Shown in pieces: positions 27,567 to 64,000 of a stretch of DNA of 64,000 nt. The notes beneath the pieces were generated by a model that searched no databases, was not told where the DNA came from, and was given only the letters and a program-made list of their open reading frames with translations. The translations under genes were made by a program, and so were the position numbers. This DNA is from Cyanobacteria bacterium P01_A01_bin.123. GTDB lineage: Bacteria; Cyanobacteriota; Cyanobacteriia; Phormidesmidales; Phormidesmidaceae. The stretch covers positions 32,001-96,000 of the forward strand of contig JBCBZT010000021.1 of NCBI GenBank assembly GCA_039815185.1, read 5' to 3'. How positions within the stretch are numbered: position 1 is the stretch's first letter; every line of letters begins with the position of its first letter.

Positions 27567-29120
27567 TCAAGTGGGTAGTGATACTGTGTAACGAGCATGC
27601 TGCTCCGCTAATCCCAGTACTAACTGACCGTCATGCTCAACTTGAGAAGATCCAACCCAATGAAGATACTGATCTAAAGTCCCAAGTTCCTTTGCAACAG
27701 CCTTCAGAGAGAGTCGTCTCAGCACATCTATTGTTACTGGCCTTTTCTCATCCCAGAAAATCATAGAACTTAAGAACTCAATTGAAGGCCTTGATGTAAC
27801 CAATTCAAAAATATATTTAGCTTCCTTCTCAGTATCAAAAGACAAGAAATTTACGGTGTCGTCAAAAACGACTGCTTTCTCATCTAATGGGCCAACGATA
27901 CAGAAGTTCAATTTCTTGTAAAGTCCTGATATTGCTATTTTCCATTTCTTAAAAGTGTAAGAGCCAATGCCAAAAATTGAATATGGCGGCTTGTTCTTAT
28001 AAATTGAACTTTTTCTGTTCTTTAGATATTCATCATGTTCTAATAAATATTGCCATGTTTTCGGAAAATTTTCTTTGATAACACTCGTATCTTCAGCAAT
28101 TGATTTCTGCGTAATCAGGACAAGTTTACGATAAGACGTAACTCTATTATTGCCGATATCGGAACTTTTGAGGAGAGGGAATAGACACTCTTCCTCTAAA
28201 GAATACTTTTCTCCAAAACCATTGCAGAAAAGAGAACTGTCAATCTGTTCAAGCACCATGACTTTGGAACAATCATGTTTGACACCAGAACGCCATAAAT
28301 ATCTTAGATCTTGACCTGCCAGATGTTTCCATTGCTTATATAAAATTGTATTGCTTAGAAGCCATCCATCCCTTTCTCCAATGATATAAGATGGCTTTCC
28401 TGACTCTAAGCTTTCGTATACTTCACAGTCATAATTTCCATCGTCAGTGGAGAGTACAAAAAGGCATGCTTCCACTGATGCTCCAAAATAAGCCTTTGTG
28501 TCTATTAAATAGACATAGCCTGCGAATCTATGTCCCGAATCCTTTCTGACTTGACGCATGACTTTACGAGCGACTGAGTATTTGCATAAAACTGCTATAG
28601 TTCCTTCTCTCTTTGATAACCACTCTGCATGTTTCAATAGCATCCATTCTGAAATGTCGAAATTCCCTGATCCAGTAATTGCATCAATGCCTCGTCTATT
28701 TTGGAAATTGGATTTTGAAGGAATGTTTTTGCTATTGAGAGAACTCAATTCGCTACTCGTAACCCAAGGTGGATTGCCAATTATCAAAATATAGCCTGTA
28801 TGCTCTGAAATAATAGATTGCCAATCAGTAGTAAAAAAATCAGATTCTCTGAGTGTTACAGTGGCTGAGTTTGGATATCCAGAAATAGATGATTTAGCAT
28901 CCAAGATGTATTCGTTATTTATGTCTAAGCCTATGATCCTTGAGTTCTTAAACTCAGCAAGAGCAGCTCGAATAAATGCTCCTTTCCCACAACTTGGCTC
29001 TATAATAATCTGTGGCTTTATTTTGTGATTGAGCTTTAAAGTCGAAACTACTTTTCGGGCAAGATTTTCAGGGGTTTGAAAATCACCAAATTGCCACTTT
29101 AGCAATGATTTCTTTGCCAT
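27567..29120 (-). CDS. Type II amino-methyltransferase (likely N6-adenine; resembles the NspV type)
   Basis: FGDFQTP, IIEPSCGKGAF (SAM-binding) and IIGNPPWV (catalytic). The DNA is AT-rich. Confidence 0.85.
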   Translation of the reverse strand: MAKKSLLKWQFGDFQTPENLARKVVSTLKLNHKIKPQIIIEPSCGKGAFIRAALAEFKNSRIIGLDINNEYILDAKSSISGYPNSATVTLRESDFFTTDWQSIISEHTGYILIIGNPPWVTSSELSSLNSKNIPSKSNFQNRRGIDAITGSGNFDISEWMLLKHAEWLSKREGTIAVLCKYSVARKVMRQVRKDSGHRFAGYVYLIDTKAYFGASVEACLFVLSTDDGNYDCEVYESLESGKPSYIIGERDGWLLSNTILYKQWKHLAGQDLRYLWRSGVKHDCSKVMVLEQIDSSLFCNGFGEKYSLEEECLFPLLKSSDIGNNRVTSYRKLVLITQKSIAEDTSVIKENFPKTWQYLLEHDEYLKNRKSSIYKNKPPYSIFGIGSYTFKKWKIAISGLYKKLNFCIVGPLDEKAVVFDDTVNFLSFDTEKEAKYIFELVTSRPSIEFLSSMIFWDEKRPVTIDVLRRLSLKAVAKELGTLDQYLHWVGSSQVEHDGQLVLGLAEQHARYTVSLPT

Positions 29121-29774
29121 TTATCGAACTCTTAGTATTCCTGAAGTTTTTCCGGTCTTATCAATAACGCGGCGATATTGAAGCCTCCACTGAAGAGCAT
29201 TTGACATTGTTAAGTAGCCTTGATTTGGACGCGACTCTAAAATCCTATCAGCCAGTTGATTCGCACCGATTTCATCAACAGGAAGATGTCTTTCTAATAT
29301 GAAGGCAACAATATCATCTTTATTTGCATCTCGATCTAAGATCTCCCGTAGTCCTGTGGTAGTTTGAAAGTCAGCAGTTCTAGTTTTGTCTACAAAAACA
29401 GTGTGTTTGATATCTAACCTTCCAGTTCTATTTTCAGAGTCGTCATATTTTTCATAAACAAATACTAGAAGATGATATCCTAATCCAAAAACTTTCTGGG
29501 CTGCTGATTTAAATGGGCAAGAAGATTGGGGCTGTTTGATACTTGTCACTTTCATGTCAACTTCGAGACCAGGGAAATCAATACCTGACGCGGAATTACC
29601 TGGTTGATAGTCATAACTTTCGGATAAATATGCCGTAAACTTATGCTCAAGATAAGTGCCGATTGCTTTACCGTCTGTTATGCCATAAAGCGTAGGTTCG
29701 TTATATGCAGTTTCGACTTCAGCAAACTTGGCTGCCTCAATGCGCAAGTATTCGGCTGTCAATTCTCGCTTCAT
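29121..29774 (-). CDS. Type II restriction endonuclease (PD-(D/E)XK; resembles the NspV type)
   Basis: GIDFPGLEVDMKVTS catalytic-type motif. Its stop codon directly abuts the methyltransferase ATG. Confidence 0.75.
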   Translation of the reverse strand: MKRELTAEYLRIEAAKFAEVETAYNEPTLYGITDGKAIGTYLEHKFTAYLSESYDYQPGNSASGIDFPGLEVDMKVTSIKQPQSSCPFKSAAQKVFGLGYHLLVFVYEKYDDSENRTGRLDIKHTVFVDKTRTADFQTTTGLREILDRDANKDDIVAFILERHLPVDEIGANQLADRILESRPNQGYLTMSNALQWRLQYRRVIDKTGKTSGILRVR

Positions 29775-29880
29775 ACTGATTTTAATGATGGCTCACTCTA
29801 AATAGTACACTGCTCCTCTTGTTTGAAGTTGATATCTTCTTGGCTCAAGTTTCTTTAGAGATGTCAGGTATAAGAGCTTA

Positions 29881-29902
29881 TATATTCAGGCACCTGAATA
29901 TA
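29881..29902. promoter_or_regulatory. Perfect inverted repeat in the R-M leader, possible operator
   Basis: TATATTCAGG-CA-CCTGAATATA. Confidence 0.45.
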
Positions 29903-30000
29903 GAGTGAGAGTTACTGATTGACTGAGATTAAGGTAGGTGTGTCTCAGATGGACAGATGTAAGGAGTAGTTTTAACCCCTCATACTTCTCCCTTACGATC

Positions 30001-31054: not shown

Positions 31055-32116
31055 CTACTGCGCCTCGGCGTAAGCCTGAACAAACTGATCATCGAGCACT
31101 GCTTCTAGATCGGGGGCTTCGGGGATGAAGCCGACGCTTACCATGAAATCAGCCATTTGTTCGGCAGCGTAGGGCATAGACGTCATATCTTCCCCCGCTT
31201 GGAAGGCTTCTAGATTTTCCTCTAGGGTGAAGAACCGCGTTCCTTCTAAGTAAAGCCCAAACTCATCGGCGCTGACGCTGGCCCGTGCCGCCATAATTTC
31301 ATTGGCCCGTTCGGTGTTTTCTTCCATAAAGGCCAGAATGTCAAACCAGGTGTTGATAAGAGCCTGCACTTGCTCGGGCTGTTCATCCCGGAGGGTATGA
31401 CTCACCACCAGCAAATCGGGAATTGCCCCTGGATATTCCGCAGAACTAACCAGCTCCTTGCTGCCCTCACGGCTTAAGGCCGTTTCCCAGAAAGGCACCC
31501 AACCTGCGAAGGCATCGACCTGCTCGGCGGCGAAGGCGGTTGCCGCAGCCCCGGTCTCTAAGTTTTTGATCTCAACATCATCGCGGCTTAGCCCTGCATC
31601 TTCTAGCGCTAGACTCAGCAAAAAGTCCCCGACGACGCCTTCTTCTAGGGCAATGGACTTACCGGCAAGATCTTCGACGCTGTTGATATCTCCGGTGACG
31701 ATGATTTTGTCATTGCCTGCGGAGTTGTCGTTGACCAACACTGCGACTTCTCCATTGACGGCTGCATCTGCAAAGGAAATAGTGTCATTGAGGGTTTGGC
31801 AATTGGCATCCAGTTGTCCTGAGGCCAGCGCTTCCATCGAGGCTAAATACCCATCAAACCAAATCAGTTCAACGTTGGCCCCATTTTTTTCAAACAGACC
31901 TTCTTCCTCTGCGATCGCCCAAGGCCACCAGCCCGCCCAACTGCTGTAGCCCATTTTGATCGCTTCTCCGTCACTGGCCACTACTTCAGTCTCTAGGGCA
32001 GAAGCTGCCTCATCAGGACTGGGGGTCTCTGTTGCTGGCTCACTTCCACACCCAACCGCGATCAGCAGGGTACATACAAAAGAAAGTAAAATTGGTAAAA
32101 ACGAACGACGTCTCAT
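31055..32116 (-). CDS. ABC transporter substrate-binding lipoprotein (guanidine)
   Basis: Lipobox AVGC; GYSSWAGWWPW, CQTLNDT and NDNSAGNDK; lies in the gdmH operon. Confidence 0.9.
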   Translation of the reverse strand: MRRRSFLPILLSFVCTLLIAVGCGSEPATETPSPDEAASALETEVVASDGEAIKMGYSSWAGWWPWAIAEEEGLFEKNGANVELIWFDGYLASMEALASGQLDANCQTLNDTISFADAAVNGEVAVLVNDNSAGNDKIIVTGDINSVEDLAGKSIALEEGVVGDFLLSLALEDAGLSRDDVEIKNLETGAAATAFAAEQVDAFAGWVPFWETALSREGSKELVSSAEYPGAIPDLLVVSHTLRDEQPEQVQALINTWFDILAFMEENTERANEIMAARASVSADEFGLYLEGTRFFTLEENLEAFQAGEDMTSMPYAAEQMADFMVSVGFIPEAPDLEAVLDDQFVQAYAEAQ

Positions 32117-59115: not shown

Positions 59116-59124
59116 AGACTCCAA

Positions 59125-59511
59125 ATGCTCGAATTCATTACCCTTCCAAACGAACTTCCCCCCGTTGCCCCCTATTCCCACGCGGTTCGGGCGGGAGATT
59201 TTTTGTTTGTGACTGGGCAGTTGGCAGAAGACCCCACAACTGGCGAAGTTGTCAAAGGGCCAATCGAAGCCCAAACTCGCCAGGTGATGGAAAATCTGAA
59301 GCGGGTACTGACCCATGCCGGGACTGGGTTTGACAAGGTCGTCATGGTCAGGATTTTTGTCACCGACTTTCGCTATTACGAAACCGTCAATGAAATCTAT
59401 GCATCGTATTTTGAACAGAATCGTTTGCCTGGACGCACAACCGTTGGCGTCATGGGGCTAGCAGGTTTCGGTGATGTGGAAATTGATTTGATCGTGTACT
59501 GCGGAGAATAA
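59125..59511 (+). CDS. RidA/YjgF family protein
   Basis: PYSHAV, FVTGQL, NEIYASYF, PGRTTV and VEID. Confidence 0.92.
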   Translation: MLEFITLPNELPPVAPYSHAVRAGDFLFVTGQLAEDPTTGEVVKGPIEAQTRQVMENLKRVLTHAGTGFDKVVMVRIFVTDFRYYETVNEIYASYFEQNRLPGRTTVGVMGLAGFGDVEIDLIVYCGE

Positions 59512-59566
59512 GCTTTAAGCGCCGTATCACGCCGCTTTACACCCGGAATGCGTAGTGAGGATATTG

Positions 59567-62500
59567 CTACATCTCCCGCCATGCACTGGTTGCGATCGCG
59601 GCTTTAATTTTTTGATGACAGCGATCGCGATGTTGCACTGCCACCAAATCACCAGGGAGCGCCTGTACACAAGCCTCAAATCCCTTTAAAGCAGCCCCAT
59701 ATTCCCCCAAATTGAACTGGGTCAGTGCCGTTTCAAACGTAGTTTTGAGCTGCCGCTTTTGCTCTCGAATTGCCACCGGATCAGCATCAAATATTTCAAA
59801 GATTGATACCGGCTCAGATTTGCCTTTTACACACACCCGGTCAATCAGACGGTACGCATAAACATCAGGATCTTTTAGGCGCATCAAAGTTTCATGGGAG
59901 ATTAGCAGCGGCACACCATAGTGCTTGGTCAATTTTTCAATGCGAGCGGCCAGATTAACCGTATCGCTGATCACCGTGCTATCCATGTGAGATGGGCCAC
60001 CGACGGTACCAAGCATCATCAGGCCAGAATTGATGCCAATGCCATTGCTCACTGGGGAATAGCCGTTTACCGCGCGATCGCGATTGTAAGCCTGGAGGTT
60101 TTTCAGCATGGCGATCGCGCTCCGCACGGCATCATCAGCATCCCCTGGAAACAGCGCCATAATGGCATCACCAACATACTTGTCGATGAAGCCACCATTC
60201 TCCACAATGGCGGGTTCCATGCAAGACAAATAAGTATTAATGAACTTGAAATTTGCAGCCGGGGTCATTTGCTCTGACAAGGCGGTAAAGTTGCGAATAT
60301 CGGCAAACAACACCGACATATCTTGCTGGGTCTGATCTCCCAAGCGCACATCCACGATGCTTTCTTTCTCAAGCAGCTGCAAAAATTCGTGGGGGACAAA
60401 GCGGCTGTAGGCAATGTTGAGTTGGGAGAGCCGCAGATGCGTCTTGATGCGGGCCAACAGCTCATTCTTGGCAATCGGTTTTGCCAGATAGTCGTTAGCC
60501 CCTGTTTCTAAACCTTGAATCAAATCTGTCACCTGGTTCTTTGCCGTCAGCATTAGAATTGGCAATTCGTTGGCAGAGAACCGCTCTCGCAGTTTGTGTG
60601 TCACTTCGTAGCCCGTCATGTTGGGCATCATCACATCTAACAAAATCAAGTCGGGTTGAAACCCTTGCTTAATGACGCGAAATACATCTTCACCGCTGGC
60701 AGCCTGCGCGATCGCGTAATTCTCTAGCGACAAATGATTGCGTAAGACCTGCAAATTCACAGGCTCATCATCCACAATCAAAATCTTGAACCGTCGATTG
60801 AGCTCTGCCGACTCCGCTACGACAGCCGGACTCAAGGCCCCATTTGAGTCCGGTGAACCGACAACCAACTGCTCTAAAGCGGGAAGATAAAGCGGCTCGG
60901 GCGTCGCCGGGATATCTACAGCAGCCAGTTCTGCGGGTGTGGCTAATGGCAGCGTGAAATGAAACTGTGAACCCGTGTCAACGCTAGACTCGACCCAAAT
61001 GTTGCCGCCGTGGAGTTCAACCAATTGTTTGGTAATCGTAAGCCCGAGGCCAGTGCCACCATATTGTCGTGCCACCGAACCATCCGCTTGTTCGAAGGAT
61101 TCAAAAATCCGCTCTCGCTTGTCTAACGGGATGCCCACGCCGGTATCTGAGACAGTAATGATGATTTTTTTTTCGGGCTGATCCGGCAACGGAGACGCTG
61201 TCACCGCTATCTTGCCCACCGCCGTGAACTTAACGGCATTACCAATCAGGTTATGCAGAATCTGCTGCAAGCGATTTTCGTCAGCTTGCACTAGGGGCAA
61301 CTCAGCCGGAATCTCATTCACCAATTGCAGTTGTTTATGGCCGATCAGCCCCGTACTCAAGGCCAACACCATATCTGCTAATCCTCTCAGGTGAATTGGC
61401 TTCTGTCGCAAGGTCAGGTTGTGGGCTCGCAGCGTTGAGAAATCTAGGATGTCGTTAATGAGGTTGGAGAGACGACGCCCACTGCCTACGATCAGTGCAA
61501 GGTTGTCTTGGGTGGCTTTGGACAATGATCCTGTCACGCCCCCGATTAATGACTCGGCAATGCCGATGATGCCATTCAGCGGGGTGCGCAACTCATGGGA
61601 CGTATTGGCTAAGAATTCATTCTTCAGGCGATCGAGCTGTTTGAGTTCAGCATTGGCCTGGGCGAGTTCCTGGGTGCGAGTTGCCACCGTCACTTCCAAC
61701 TCGGTGTTAAACGTTTCAAGTTGGTTCGCATAGCCTTCAAGGGCGTCCATCACCTGGTTATAACGGGTAGCAATGTGCCCCACTTCCGTAAACGGATCGA
61801 CCGGAGCCCGTAAACTAAAATCTTTGCGCTGAGAATGCTCATCCATAATTTGGAGCAATTCATAGGCGTCCGTTTTAGCCTTGTGTTCGGCGTAGTTGAG
61901 CCCTATATCTTCGGCTTCGGCCGAGACCCGCAGGGGAAACCGGGAGTTAATGCCCCATAACAGCAGATAGGCCACCCCAAAGGCCCAAACAAAACACACA
62001 CTAATACCCAGCAACTGAACCAGCAGCTGACTGAAACGATTGAGCCCAGTATGTAGCAGATCACTTTGGCCAAACAGGGCAACGGCCAACGTCCCCCAGA
62101 CGCCGCTGCCGCCGTGTACTGCGATCGCATCTACAGCATCATCGATACGGTAGTGCTCCAAAATGCGGATGGTAGTGTGAGCCACAAGACCAGCAACTGC
62201 CCCAATCAAGACCGCAGCAGAGGTACTCACAACATGGCTAGAGGCTGTAATCGCAACTAAACCGGCAATTGAACCATTGATTAAACTTTCGGGCTGGGCA
62301 ACGCCTGTGTAAAACCAGTTGATAACCGTTAGGGTGAGCATGCCAGCGACGCCAGACATGACTGTATTTACCATGATGCCAGCGATTTGGTCATTGAAGG
62401 CCAGCGTACTGCCACCGTTAAAGCCTAACCAGCCGAACCACAACAACATGGCCCCGAGTACTGACATGGGTAAGTTAGAGCCATGAATTTTATGGACTTG

Positions 62501-63064
62501 CCCATCGGGTGTGAATCGCCCTATGCGTGGCCCGATGACTAGCAGGGCAGCGAGAGCTACCCACGCTCCCACGCTGTGCACCACGGTAGCACCTGAAAAA
62601 TCCACAAATCCAAGCTGGCGCAACCAGCCAATCGCCTCCCCAGTGGCAATGCCATTCCAAGCCCAATGACCAAATATGGGATAAACAATGCCCGAGACAA
62701 GGACGGCAATAATGCCATAGGCCGCAAACTGCAATCGTTCAGCCACTGCGCCCGATACGATTGTGGTGGCAGTGCTGCAAAACATCGCCTGAAATAGGAA
62801 AAACGCTGCCACCCGAGGGGCATTGGGCTCCACTTGGAAGAGAAAGTGATCAAGTCCTAGCCAGCCCCAAAATGAGGAGCCAAACATCAGCCCAAAGCTA
62901 AAACCCCAAAAAAGAAAGCCAGAAATCCCAAAGTCGGCCAGGTTTTTGACTGCAACATTAATGCTGTTTTTCGTACGAGTCAAACCAGACTCTAAACACA
63001 TAAAGCCGGGCTGCATTAAAAAGACGAGCCCCGAACAGATTAATATCCAGCCAACATCATTCAT
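59567..63064 (-). CDS. Ammonium transporter fused to histidine kinase, receiver and class III adenylate cyclase domains
   Basis: Amt: FLMQPGF..LESG, SGAVAER, DFSG..VVH, WFGW.GFNGGS, DDAVDAIAVH. Kinase: SHELRTPL, NAVKF, GGTGLGL. Receiver: VDDE, LLDVMMP. Cyclase: FADIRNFT, DKYVGD, VNLAARIE. Confidence 0.93.
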   Translation of the reverse strand: MNDVGWILICSGLVFLMQPGFMCLESGLTRTKNSINVAVKNLADFGISGFLFWGFSFGLMFGSSFWGWLGLDHFLFQVEPNAPRVAAFFLFQAMFCSTATTIVSGAVAERLQFAAYGIIAVLVSGIVYPIFGHWAWNGIATGEAIGWLRQLGFVDFSGATVVHSVGAWVALAALLVIGPRIGRFTPDGQVHKIHGSNLPMSVLGAMLLWFGWLGFNGGSTLAFNDQIAGIMVNTVMSGVAGMLTLTVINWFYTGVAQPESLINGSIAGLVAITASSHVVSTSAAVLIGAVAGLVAHTTIRILEHYRIDDAVDAIAVHGGSGVWGTLAVALFGQSDLLHTGLNRFSQLLVQLLGISVCFVWAFGVAYLLLWGINSRFPLRVSAEAEDIGLNYAEHKAKTDAYELLQIMDEHSQRKDFSLRAPVDPFTEVGHIATRYNQVMDALEGYANQLETFNTELEVTVATRTQELAQANAELKQLDRLKNEFLANTSHELRTPLNGIIGIAESLIGGVTGSLSKATQDNLALIVGSGRRLSNLINDILDFSTLRAHNLTLRQKPIHLRGLADMVLALSTGLIGHKQLQLVNEIPAELPLVQADENRLQQILHNLIGNAVKFTAVGKIAVTASPLPDQPEKKIIITVSDTGVGIPLDKRERIFESFEQADGSVARQYGGTGLGLTITKQLVELHGGNIWVESSVDTGSQFHFTLPLATPAELAAVDIPATPEPLYLPALEQLVVGSPDSNGALSPAVVAESAELNRRFKILIVDDEPVNLQVLRNHLSLENYAIAQAASGEDVFRVIKQGFQPDLILLDVMMPNMTGYEVTHKLRERFSANELPILMLTAKNQVTDLIQGLETGANDYLAKPIAKNELLARIKTHLRLSQLNIAYSRFVPHEFLQLLEKESIVDVRLGDQTQQDMSVLFADIRNFTALSEQMTPAANFKFINTYLSCMEPAIVENGGFIDKYVGDAIMALFPGDADDAVRSAIAMLKNLQAYNRDRAVNGYSPVSNGIGINSGLMMLGTVGGPSHMDSTVISDTVNLAARIEKLTKHYGVPLLISHETLMRLKDPDVYAYRLIDRVCVKGKSEPVSIFEIFDADPVAIREQKRQLKTTFETALTQFNLGEYGAALKGFEACVQALPGDLVAVQHRDRCHQKIKAAIATSAWREM

Positions 63065-64000
63065 AAACCCGATCCCAATAATGAGTTAGAGGTGGTTTAA
63101 GGAGGGTTCCTAGCGATAAGGTTTGTGGCTAAGGCTCAAACAAAAGACACCACGTGAATTGAGTTAGGCCACTTTTATACAAACTTAAGTTCCTGATACG
63201 GTGCTTCGCATCCCTCTTCAGGAAAAACGCTTTAGCATTACATGACTTGAGGTTATTTTGATCAATGCATGATGGCTAAACCGAATTTGGAGATGACGAC
63301 ATCTGTATCACTCTTGTTATGAACTGAACCAAAATCGTTTGGAGGACAAGCGTTGTGAAGATCTAACCTGGAGGTACAGCTAAGTTTAACTATCGCTATT
63401 ATTCTCTAGATCCAGATAATTTACCAAGGGCCAAAATGCTGATTATTAGGCTATTTTAAGCTGATAAAGATAGATTTGAATCAATACTTTTAATTTGACG
63501 TAGAAATGGATATCAATCAGATTAACCCATCAAGCGCTGCCAGCAGTAATCTCAAGACGCATAGCGCTGTGATGTTAATCACGCAGAGATCTATCCTTAA
63601 TCTCTTCTTATTAAGAATAGAAAGCCTCTTGACGGTAGTCAGCAGGTCGCCAGTTATCCAGTCAGCTATAGGGGGAACAGACTCAACTCAACCTGTAGAC
63701 CTATAAATGCTGGCAACAGTTCAGAGGGTAGATTAATCGCCACAGAATTCGATGCAGTTGTGTCCCCCATTGCTATTTTCACAGAGGGATTTCACGATAG
63801 TGGGTGCCTTAAGGAACACAGCCGAAACCACAAATTTCCCAGAAGAGGTTTGTGATGCGCGAATAGTGCATGGATGGGGCCATTTCTTGGCTAGAAACAG
63901 GATGTATTTGTATGTTGCGCGTAGTGCGGACTCCTTTCCATCTAAGGATAGAAACTGCGATCGCGCTGTGTAGCTACATTTTCGTATAAAATATCACTAT

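Follow-up and report, generated by a model that had tools for sequence, protein, structure and literature searches.

A probable route from ammonium to cyclic AMP in one polypeptide: a cyanobacterial gene joining a receptor-type Amt domain, a histidine kinase, a receiver and a class III adenylyl cyclase

Introduction

Can a single polypeptide read ammonium outside the cell and answer with cyclic AMP (cAMP)? The question is raised by a gene of Cyanobacteria bacterium P01_A01_bin.123 (assembly GCA_039815185.1, contig JBCBZT010000021.1). It lies at 59567..63064 on the minus strand of the stretch analysed here, 64,000 nucleotides from positions 32,001 to 96,000 of the contig's forward strand. This whole stretch is called the window, and coordinates refer to it. 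A preliminary description of the DNA had read the gene as an Amt, a histidine kinase, a receiver and an adenylate cyclase in one chain, and had proposed that it senses ammonium or methylammonium and makes cAMP without passing through the 2-oxoglutarate/PII/NtcA route. Our analysis points to the same core function. It is probable that NH4+ binding is relayed through His490 and Asp810 to cAMP synthesis within one chain. Support for the proposal comes from the N1/N2 signature of an ammonium-binding pocket carried by the Amt domain, a signature incomplete in the stand-alone Amts of the same genome. The other sequence-based parts of the argument are the domain order, the intact catalytic residues and the pattern of the linkers.

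Cyanobacteria are described as sensing nitrogen internally, by way of 2-oxoglutarate, PII and NtcA, while cAMP signals high carbon and is read by SbtB (PMC8042125). The same source reports that PII binds Amt1 in Synechocystis. If the proposal made here is correct, an outward-looking nitrogen input would be added and external ammonium would be tied to the carbon messenger cAMP.

The gene and its integrity

The gene is a single uninterrupted open reading frame of 1165 amino acids with no stop inside, and it is probably monocistronic. Five Pfam families match the protein above their curated cut-offs, in the order Ammonium_transp (residues 6-397, E 4e-115), HisKA (481-547), HATPase_c (595-708), Response_reg (761-874) and Guanylate_cyc (911-1084). 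The NCBIfam amt model likewise passes for the Amt part. Every motif quoted in the preliminary description is present in the translation and can be numbered. These are VVH (H163) and AVH (H317) in the Amt domain, EVGHIATRYNQ (427-437) in the linker, SHELRTP (H490) in the kinase and LLDVMMP (D810) in the receiver. The cyclase contributes DKYVGD (K962 and D966), STVISD (T1030) and VNLAAR (N1037 and R1041), with the first metal Asp at D922. At the level of sequence this confirms an intact gene ordered as Amt, HAMP-like linker, signalling helix, histidine kinase, receiver and class III adenylyl cyclase.

What if the fusion is an assembly chimera, or a recent chance fusion without function? The host assembly has a contamination of 5.99%, the gene occurs in few genomes, and its neighbours are not conserved, all of which would suit such an accident. 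However, all five families occur together in 50 of the 120 protein clusters among the matches listed, at about 50-82% identity. These 50 clusters include the window's own protein, one partial protein (P0036) and two with extra domains (P0028 and P0044). The named ones among them are all cyanobacterial, the nearest named match being that of Leptolyngbya sp. SIO1E4 (78%). A protein of Lusitaniella coriacea LEGE 07157, a cultured carrier, is also among the matches listed. In addition, one 7139-base contig from run X6, which belongs to a separate study, spans 59120-63600 with 129 differences and zero gaps; among the differences listed, 10 of the 12 inside the gene are synonymous. Full-length copies elsewhere sit on contigs of 2.7 and 6.1 Mb. 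The preliminary description had named a chimera as something that would undo its proposal. The five-family clusters, the X6 contig and the full-length copies in other genomes refute one, and an accident of either kind has a vanishingly small probability. The sequence evidence confirms a real, conserved and rare cyanobacterial protein, with an output cassette that is CyaC-like but separate from CyaC (see below).

An Amt domain of the ammonium-receptor class

The Amt domain (residues 1-397; 61874..63064, minus strand, as are all features of the gene) was assigned from Pfam (PF00909), solved relatives, model fold and a published signature. Ranked by bit score, the solved relatives are Sd-Amt1 (406 bits over residues 6-450, linker included), Ks-Amt5 (319) and Af-Amt1 (193). 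A fold search with the Amt model gives the same ranking, with a TM-score of 0.93 to 8qj3. Ammonium receptors (AmRs) are defined by a two-ion pocket, with the signature QX6EX15NX2DF/TX54-60TX2S/T (PMC11152129). This N1/N2 signature matches residues 18-104. Pairwise alignment places Sd-Amt1 Q22, F25, E29, K44, N45 and D48 at Q18, F21, E25, K40, N41 and D44, and F49, T104, S107, Y119 and N269 at F45, T101, S104, Y116 and N263. The switch and access residues F21, K40 and Y116 and the exit residue N263 are all kept, as in an AmR.

More general features are also in place. Sd-Amt1 F98/F221 and W139/S225 correspond to F95/F215 and W136/S219, and the twin His is H163 and H317. An Amt fold with the Trp/Ser site, the Phe pair and the twin His, followed by a C-terminal transducer, is the build of an AmR. 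The preliminary description had pointed to the twin His, the Phe gate and the W/S site. These residues are indeed present, but they are common to all Amts, and it is the N1/N2 signature that discriminates.

How widely is the pocket kept? The six core ligands are all present in 109 of 116 aligned fused relatives, an alignment made without P0002, P0036 and three proteins lacking Amt. N263 is substituted in 8 of the 49 sequences that cover the position. Many relatives do not match the published signature in its strict form, as they have Val, Ile or Leu at the F/T position. In the same genome, two stand-alone Amts (on C119) replace Q18 with Asn, D44 with Val and Y116 with Phe, and a third stand-alone Amt is more divergent. 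The genome thus has separate uptake candidates. For the fused domain, an assimilatory cluster-1 Amt of the AmtB/Af-Amt1 type was considered and rejected. The domain has the N1/N2 ligands, and at its exit stands Asn, not the Ser of Af-Amt1 (S251).

By sequence, then, the domain is a member of the AmR class of Sd-Amt1 and Ks-Amt5, and is predicted to bind NH4+. Methylammonium is unlikely to be a signal, contrary to what had been suggested, since AmRs discriminate against it (PMC11152129). Both characterised AmRs, Sd-Amt1 and Ks-Amt5, bind ammonium without conducting it. Complementation of amtB or mep mutants should therefore be negative if the assignment is right.

Linker, signalling helix and spacing

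Two elements connect the Amt domain to the kinase. The first is a HAMP-like linker (residues 398-445; 61730..61873), recognised by hhalign, by alignment with Sd-Amt1 and by its model helices. Its profile matches the HAMP profile with an hhalign probability of 93.7%, as against 4.1% for the adjacent coiled coil used as a control, although a Pfam search of the same residues gave no HAMP match. The earlier suggestion of a HAMP-like linker is upheld by this comparison. The linker can be aligned with Sd-Amt1 up to residue 456 of the latter, a segment modelled as HAMP (PMC11152129), and in the model it forms a helix (399-413), a loop and another helix from 427. The second element is a signalling helix (446-480; 61625..61729), assigned by alignment and model, which runs on into kinase helix 1. 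It carries the RT signature of such helices (PMC1592074) at R463-T464, with R463 in 113 and T464 in 111 of the 116 aligned proteins. The model has one helix over 427-507, continuous with the kinase and of low confidence over 450-493. A two-copy dimer prediction of residues 392-480 scored 0.32 against a mark of 0.42.

The spacing of landmarks along the chain gives a clue to how its parts may be coupled. In a set of 49 sequences (P0036 left out), the distance N390-Y435 is fixed in all 49 and Y435-H490 in 48. Further down the chain, K862-F889 is 27 and F889-D922 is constant, each in 48 of the 49. Between kinase and receiver there is a flexible tether (residues 709-759; 60788..60940), recognised by its variable length and its low predicted local distance difference test score (pLDDT). 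Here the F701-D765 spacing ranges from 54 to 126 residues, mean identity is 19%, and pLDDT is below 50 at 717-757. Fixed-length helical linkers set the activity and the sign of fused cyclases (PMC5995499). Given the fixed and variable spacings, two of the junctions look mechanical and one looks like a phosphotransfer tether. Two rigid couplings and one swinging phosphotransfer would be expected to leave just such a pattern.

Kinase, receiver and cyclase

The histidine kinase (60941..61624) consists of HisKA (residues 481-547, with H490) and HATPase (595-708, with N609, D640 and the G boxes). The receiver (761-874; 60443..60784) contains D765, D766, the phospho-acceptor D810, T840, Y859 and K862. 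Both domains were assigned from Pfam and invariant residues. All 50 aligned sequences have H490, N609, D640, five box glycines and the receiver residues just named. The receiver is the best-conserved domain, with a mean identity of 73%. The phospho-His and the N and G boxes in the kinase, and the acidic pocket, phospho-Asp, Thr and Lys in the receiver, together make up the residues of a hybrid histidine kinase. From these residues and the tether pattern we infer that the kinase autophosphorylates and transfers phosphate to its own receiver.

Past the receiver, a short helix leads into a putative cyclase transducer element, YSRFVP (residues 886-891; the two together 60371..60442), judged by its position and its resemblance to FGRY, the transducer motif quoted in PMC5995499. 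The catalytic domain of a class III adenylyl cyclase (911-1084; 59813..60334) comes next, assigned from Pfam, structural relatives and invariant residues. Class III adenylyl cyclases employ two metal-binding Asp residues, a Lys and a Thr or Asp for specificity, and an Asn and an Arg that serve the transition state. Here these positions are D922, D966, K962, T1030, N1037 and R1041, with the Lys as base-specifying partner of the Thr. T1030 is found in 49 of the 50 aligned sequences and the others in all 50. The key positions align residue for residue with CyaB (3r5g) and with photoactivated adenylyl cyclases.

Does this domain really make cAMP? One alternative is that it makes cGMP or is catalytically minor. 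The Guanylate_cyc Pfam score is low (60 bits), and Ser stands in place of Gly in TVISD in 35 of the 50 sequences. However, the catalytic residues are all invariant, and K962 aligns with the position at which a Glu-to-Lys change, E488K, turns Cya2 from a guanylyl into an adenylyl cyclase (PMC5995499). A Cya2-type guanylyl cyclase was rejected, as the base-specifying Glu is absent and Lys962 is present in all 50. An output other than cAMP is very improbable.

The second specificity residue may have another meaning. Work by Cann et al. in 2003 is said to have tied Thr in place of Asp at this position to cyclases stimulated by bicarbonate or CO2. T1030 has the Thr of that group, which is a sequence hint only. 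Bicarbonate stimulation of CyaC is stated in PMC4284465.

The protein ends in a three-helix TPR-like tail (residues 1097-1158; 59591..59776), recognised in the model (helices 1097-1118, 1122-1135 and 1140-1158) and by a weak TPR_9 match (E 0.006, below cut-off). The tail is common to the cyclase subfamily and is also found in cyclase paralogues on C43, C49 and C113. Two relatives outside the 50-sequence set, P0108 and P0110, have an intact ammonium pocket and the transducer motif, but key residues have gone from all three enzyme parts at once: His from the kinase, Asp and Lys from the receiver, and Asp, Lys and Arg from the cyclase. This joint loss is a point in favour of the route proposed below. 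The two proteins may be decoy or partner subunits.

A proposed route from NH4+ to cAMP

How might the chain work? By analogy with Sd-Amt1 and Ks-Amt5, the Amt domain would trimerise, NH4+ would pass the twin His, and two ions would bind in the N1/N2 pocket without being conducted. E25, K40, D44 and Y116 would then rearrange. Two of the three HAMP/signalling-helix rods would pair, and the kinase would be stimulated. Bound NH4+ would in this way alter kinase autophosphorylation, and internal transfer from His490 to Asp810 would set the rate of cAMP synthesis. The last steps are modelled on CyaC. The tethered receiver would take the phosphate, its last helix would push the cyclase transducer element, and the cyclase dimer would become active.

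There are precedents for both ends of this route. NH4+ modulates His phosphorylation of full-length Ks-Amt5, which goes up at low ammonium (PMC5764959). Spirulina CyaC is activated when its own kinase phosphorylates the proximal receiver (as cited in PMC3009899). We only slightly favour ammonium raising, rather than lowering, cAMP, since cAMP goes up in Anabaena variabilis when it is starved of nitrogen (PMC2633013, PMC4284465).

That finding is the first of several that weigh against the proposed route, in its case against the default sign. A second is that Ks-Amt5 phosphorylation falls again at high ammonium (PMC5764959). The model is of low confidence across the signalling helix and where receiver and cyclase join. 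Some signature-bearing proteins, including plant AMT1 and members of cluster 2, are working transporters (PMC11152129). Dictyostelium adenylate cyclase R (ACR) has a similar kinase-receiver-cyclase order, and its phosphorelay is not critical (PMC3009899). Finally, the genome itself supplies three complications. A cassette 54% identical to that of the present protein sits behind a dCache-HAMP sensor, 25 frames have a class III cyclase match, and 15 Hpt matches could drain or feed the receiver. The protein's share of the bulk cAMP pool may be small, and with so many cyclases and Hpt matches its signal may be local or branched.

These points lend themselves to two other readings. In one, the protein is a transceptor: ammonium still passes through the Amt domain, and what the kinase and cyclase report is not the occupancy of the pocket but the flux, or a secondary effect such as one on pH or membrane potential. 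The pore residues are all intact, cluster 2 shows that the signature can go with transport, and N263 is variable among relatives, as noted above. On the other hand, the closest solved relatives are two non-conducting receptors, the query keeps N263, the residue that narrows the Sd-Amt1 exit (PMC11152129), and the genome has three stand-alone Amts. Taken together, conduction is unlikely. The other reading keeps the sensing of ammonium, but has the kinase-receiver part serve mainly to dimerise the cyclase, or to swap phosphate with Hpt proteins and other kinases; cAMP would in that case not depend on a simple internal step from His to Asp. ACR provides a precedent for the former and the Hpt matches provide partners for the latter. 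The paralogous cassette could cross-phosphorylate or heterodimerise, and the same Amt-kinase-receiver front ends lead to AAA_35, PAS-kinase or SpoIIE in other relatives. However, ACR is without the phospho-His (PMC3009899), whereas H490 and D810 are invariant here, and a tether of variable length cannot carry a mechanical signal from kinase to receiver. We consider this reading to have as little chance as conduction. Internal phosphotransfer from a non-conducting receptor thus stays the preferred account.

Comparison with known systems

The best solved relative is Sd-Amt1 of Shewanella denitrificans, an Amt-HAMP-diguanylate cyclase (PDB 8qj3, 8qj4 and 8qpf; PMC11152129). The two proteins have identical N1/N2, switch and exit residues, a HAMP-type link and a second-messenger output. 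However, Sd-Amt1 makes cyclic di-GMP and its GGDEF domain is coupled straight to the helix, whereas the present protein has a kinase and a receiver in between, and its predicted product is cAMP. Ks-Amt5 of Ca. Kuenenia stuttgartiensis (PDB 6eu6; PMC5764959) shares the AmR pocket and the C-terminal HisKA/HATPase. It is described without HAMP and has no fused receiver or cyclase, whereas the present protein has the receiver and output enzyme in the chain. Because the regulator served by Ks-Amt5 is unknown, the AmR class would gain a complete, self-contained pathway.

For the output half the model is CyaC of Spirulina and Anabaena, which has the same kinase-receiver-cyclase order and is activated by internal phosphotransfer. 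CyaC is soluble and built as REC-GAF-GAF-kinase-REC-adenylyl cyclase, whereas the present protein is a membrane protein without the N-terminal REC and the GAFs. The same genome also has a CyaC-type gene, on C50, with an N-terminal REC and two GAF domains; it is named CyaC by domain order only. Over the kinase-receiver-cyclase cassette the present protein is 32% identical to the C50 gene and 54% identical to the dCache paralogue, and the C50 gene is distant in trees. The CyaC parallel drawn by the preliminary description therefore needs dividing. The output cassette appears to work like CyaC, but identity with CyaC is rejected, given the absent N-terminal REC and GAFs, the 32% identity and the separation in trees.

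In Dictyostelium, components of a similar logic occur as separate proteins. RegA is a cAMP phosphodiesterase. In the AmtA/AmtC-DhkC-RegA system of this organism, ammonia influences cAMP by way of Amts that sense it and a histidine kinase phosphorelay (PMC12711200). Dictyostelium ACR resembles the present protein in joining membrane part, kinase, receiver and cyclase in one chain, and differs in its kinase lacking the His (PMC3009899).

Is the combination new? The preliminary description knew of no characterised four-module protein, and none turned up in our literature search, which also brought up no publication on a fusion of Amt and adenylyl cyclase; most subscription papers and Fig. 7B of PMC11152129, where domain organisations are pictured, lay outside its scope. 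Look-ups by term in PMC10433425, PMC2853384, PMC1183210, PMC10117731 and PMC8534201 and in the PMC11152129 supplements gave no such fusion either. Both halves are already known, and for their combination the search found no published study. That the halves are known and the gene is rare limits its importance. Nevertheless, the protein is a candidate ammonium-to-cAMP biosensor, and with it a colony-colour assay in an E. coli cya mutant could be used to test how dimeric transducers are driven by a trimeric Amt.

Shared modules and origins

The receptor module is joined to other outputs as well: PAS-kinase, SpoIIE, GGDEF-EAL, AAA_35 or a HAMP tail alone. The output cassette has changed partners too, as seen in the dCache-HAMP paralogue (L081:4036-7494, G000:C49). 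Moreover, a different and distant cyclase subfamily (YDLWGD type, adenylyl-type Lys and Asp) is coupled to this receptor module in other loci, of which seven are cyanobacterial, one is split and one is from Leptospiraceae (L031, L034, L037, L038, L040, L042, L048, L039 and L044). The connection is through PAS in Trichodesmium, Laspinema, Phormidium and Oscillatoria. It is in two frames in Dapis and direct in the Leptospiraceae metagenome-assembled genome (MAG), a spirochaete.

The cyclase tree sets these two groups well apart, with supports of 99 and 100. Adenylyl-type cyclases were therefore joined to ammonium receptors on at least two occasions. A tree that keeps every cyanobacterial cyclase-output receptor in one group is rejected (approximately unbiased test, p-AU 0.002). 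Two recruitments rest on the cyclase tree, because non-cyclase forms nest among the four-module rows. In contrast, a single origin of the four-module form is not rejected, either on the cassette (p-AU 0.147; 22 of 32 rows) or on the Amt domain (p-AU 0.40; 35 of 77 rows), and a repeated origin of that form finds no support in these one-clade tests.

Several related arrangements deserve mention. A three-gene form (L006:5989-11046) consists of an Amt-GAF-like-kinase, a stand-alone receiver and a receiver-cyclase of the query's cyclase subfamily. A large group (P0068 and many of P0076-P0116) has Amt-kinase-receiver ending in AAA_35, and its named members are from Pleurocapsa or Xenococcaceae. A Synechocystis-type receptor of 541-546 amino acids with a HAMP tail only and no enzyme occurs at L026:5965-7605 and L028:1325-2950; this type is probably Amt3 (sll0537). 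The L026 copy comes directly after an Ion_trans_2/TrkA potassium-channel gene. The host genome itself has a second ammonium receptor, an Amt-PAS-histidine kinase of 882 amino acids (L080:4303-6951, G000:C118) that abuts a DUF389 gene, and an exact NtcA-like box lies 520 bases upstream of it.

cAMP and nitrogen in the host

Besides the 25 frames with a class III cyclase match, the genome has 24 cyclic-nucleotide-binding matches, and nifH is present. Its cAMP system is unusually rich. An sbtA gene is followed by a PII-like gene, and about 10 frames have both cyclic-nucleotide-binding and Crp helix-turn-helix matches; NtcA should be one of these frames. Candidate readers of cAMP here are SbtB and several regulators of the CRP family.

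Perhaps the whole forms a larger circuit: a direct line from external ammonium to cAMP in benthic cyanobacteria, independent of 2-oxoglutarate and wired at least twice with distant cyclase subfamilies. In the present protein the Thr-type cyclase would also respond to bicarbonate or CO2, so that one polypeptide would detect the coincidence of outside nitrogen and inorganic carbon and pass the signal to SbtB and regulators of the CRP family. As a whole the idea is a doubtful one.

Distribution and neighbourhood

The four-module gene is rare. A full-length copy occurs in 2 of 40 relatives; among 400 other genomes drawn from the phylum, with two candidates scored per genome, 2 have one. Of 79 GTDB loci, five have it whole and one has it in two frames. 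The split copy, in a Synechococcales MAG (L024:4658-8306), has frames of 354 and 784 amino acids and is an assembly error or a broken gene. Runs carrying this DNA and labelled by habitat are marine or coral metagenomes, and no RNA runs are among those listed.

Does the gene serve nitrogen fixation? As a general purpose this was rejected. nifH occurs in 2 of the 9 genomes that carry the gene whole or split (the host and G014), whereas in the relatives set it occurs in 18 of 41. Among the nine are several MAGs with no reported completeness; G013, which is 99% complete, is without nifH.

Among the homologous loci compared there are no conserved neighbours, which speaks against operon partners and suits a self-contained chain. 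No exact NtcA box (GTA-N8-TAC) lies near the gene, and among upstream regions of four-module genes one of eight has such a box, not this one. Even so, the independence from 2-oxoglutarate, PII and NtcA put forward in the preliminary description is no more than a possibility, given that PII binds Amt1 in Synechocystis (PMC8042125). Promoter and terminator scans of the locus gave counts at chance level. The next upstream open reading frame of at least 90 amino acids starts 938 bases away on the opposite strand. On the other side, a Rid-family (PF01042) gene at 59125-59511 on the plus strand is convergent with the four-module gene and comes after smc-like and PRC-barrel genes; it was not found beside other copies of the four-module gene. 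Elsewhere in the window, positions 28001-30000 have a guanine-plus-cytosine content of 38%, compared with about 51% in the rest.

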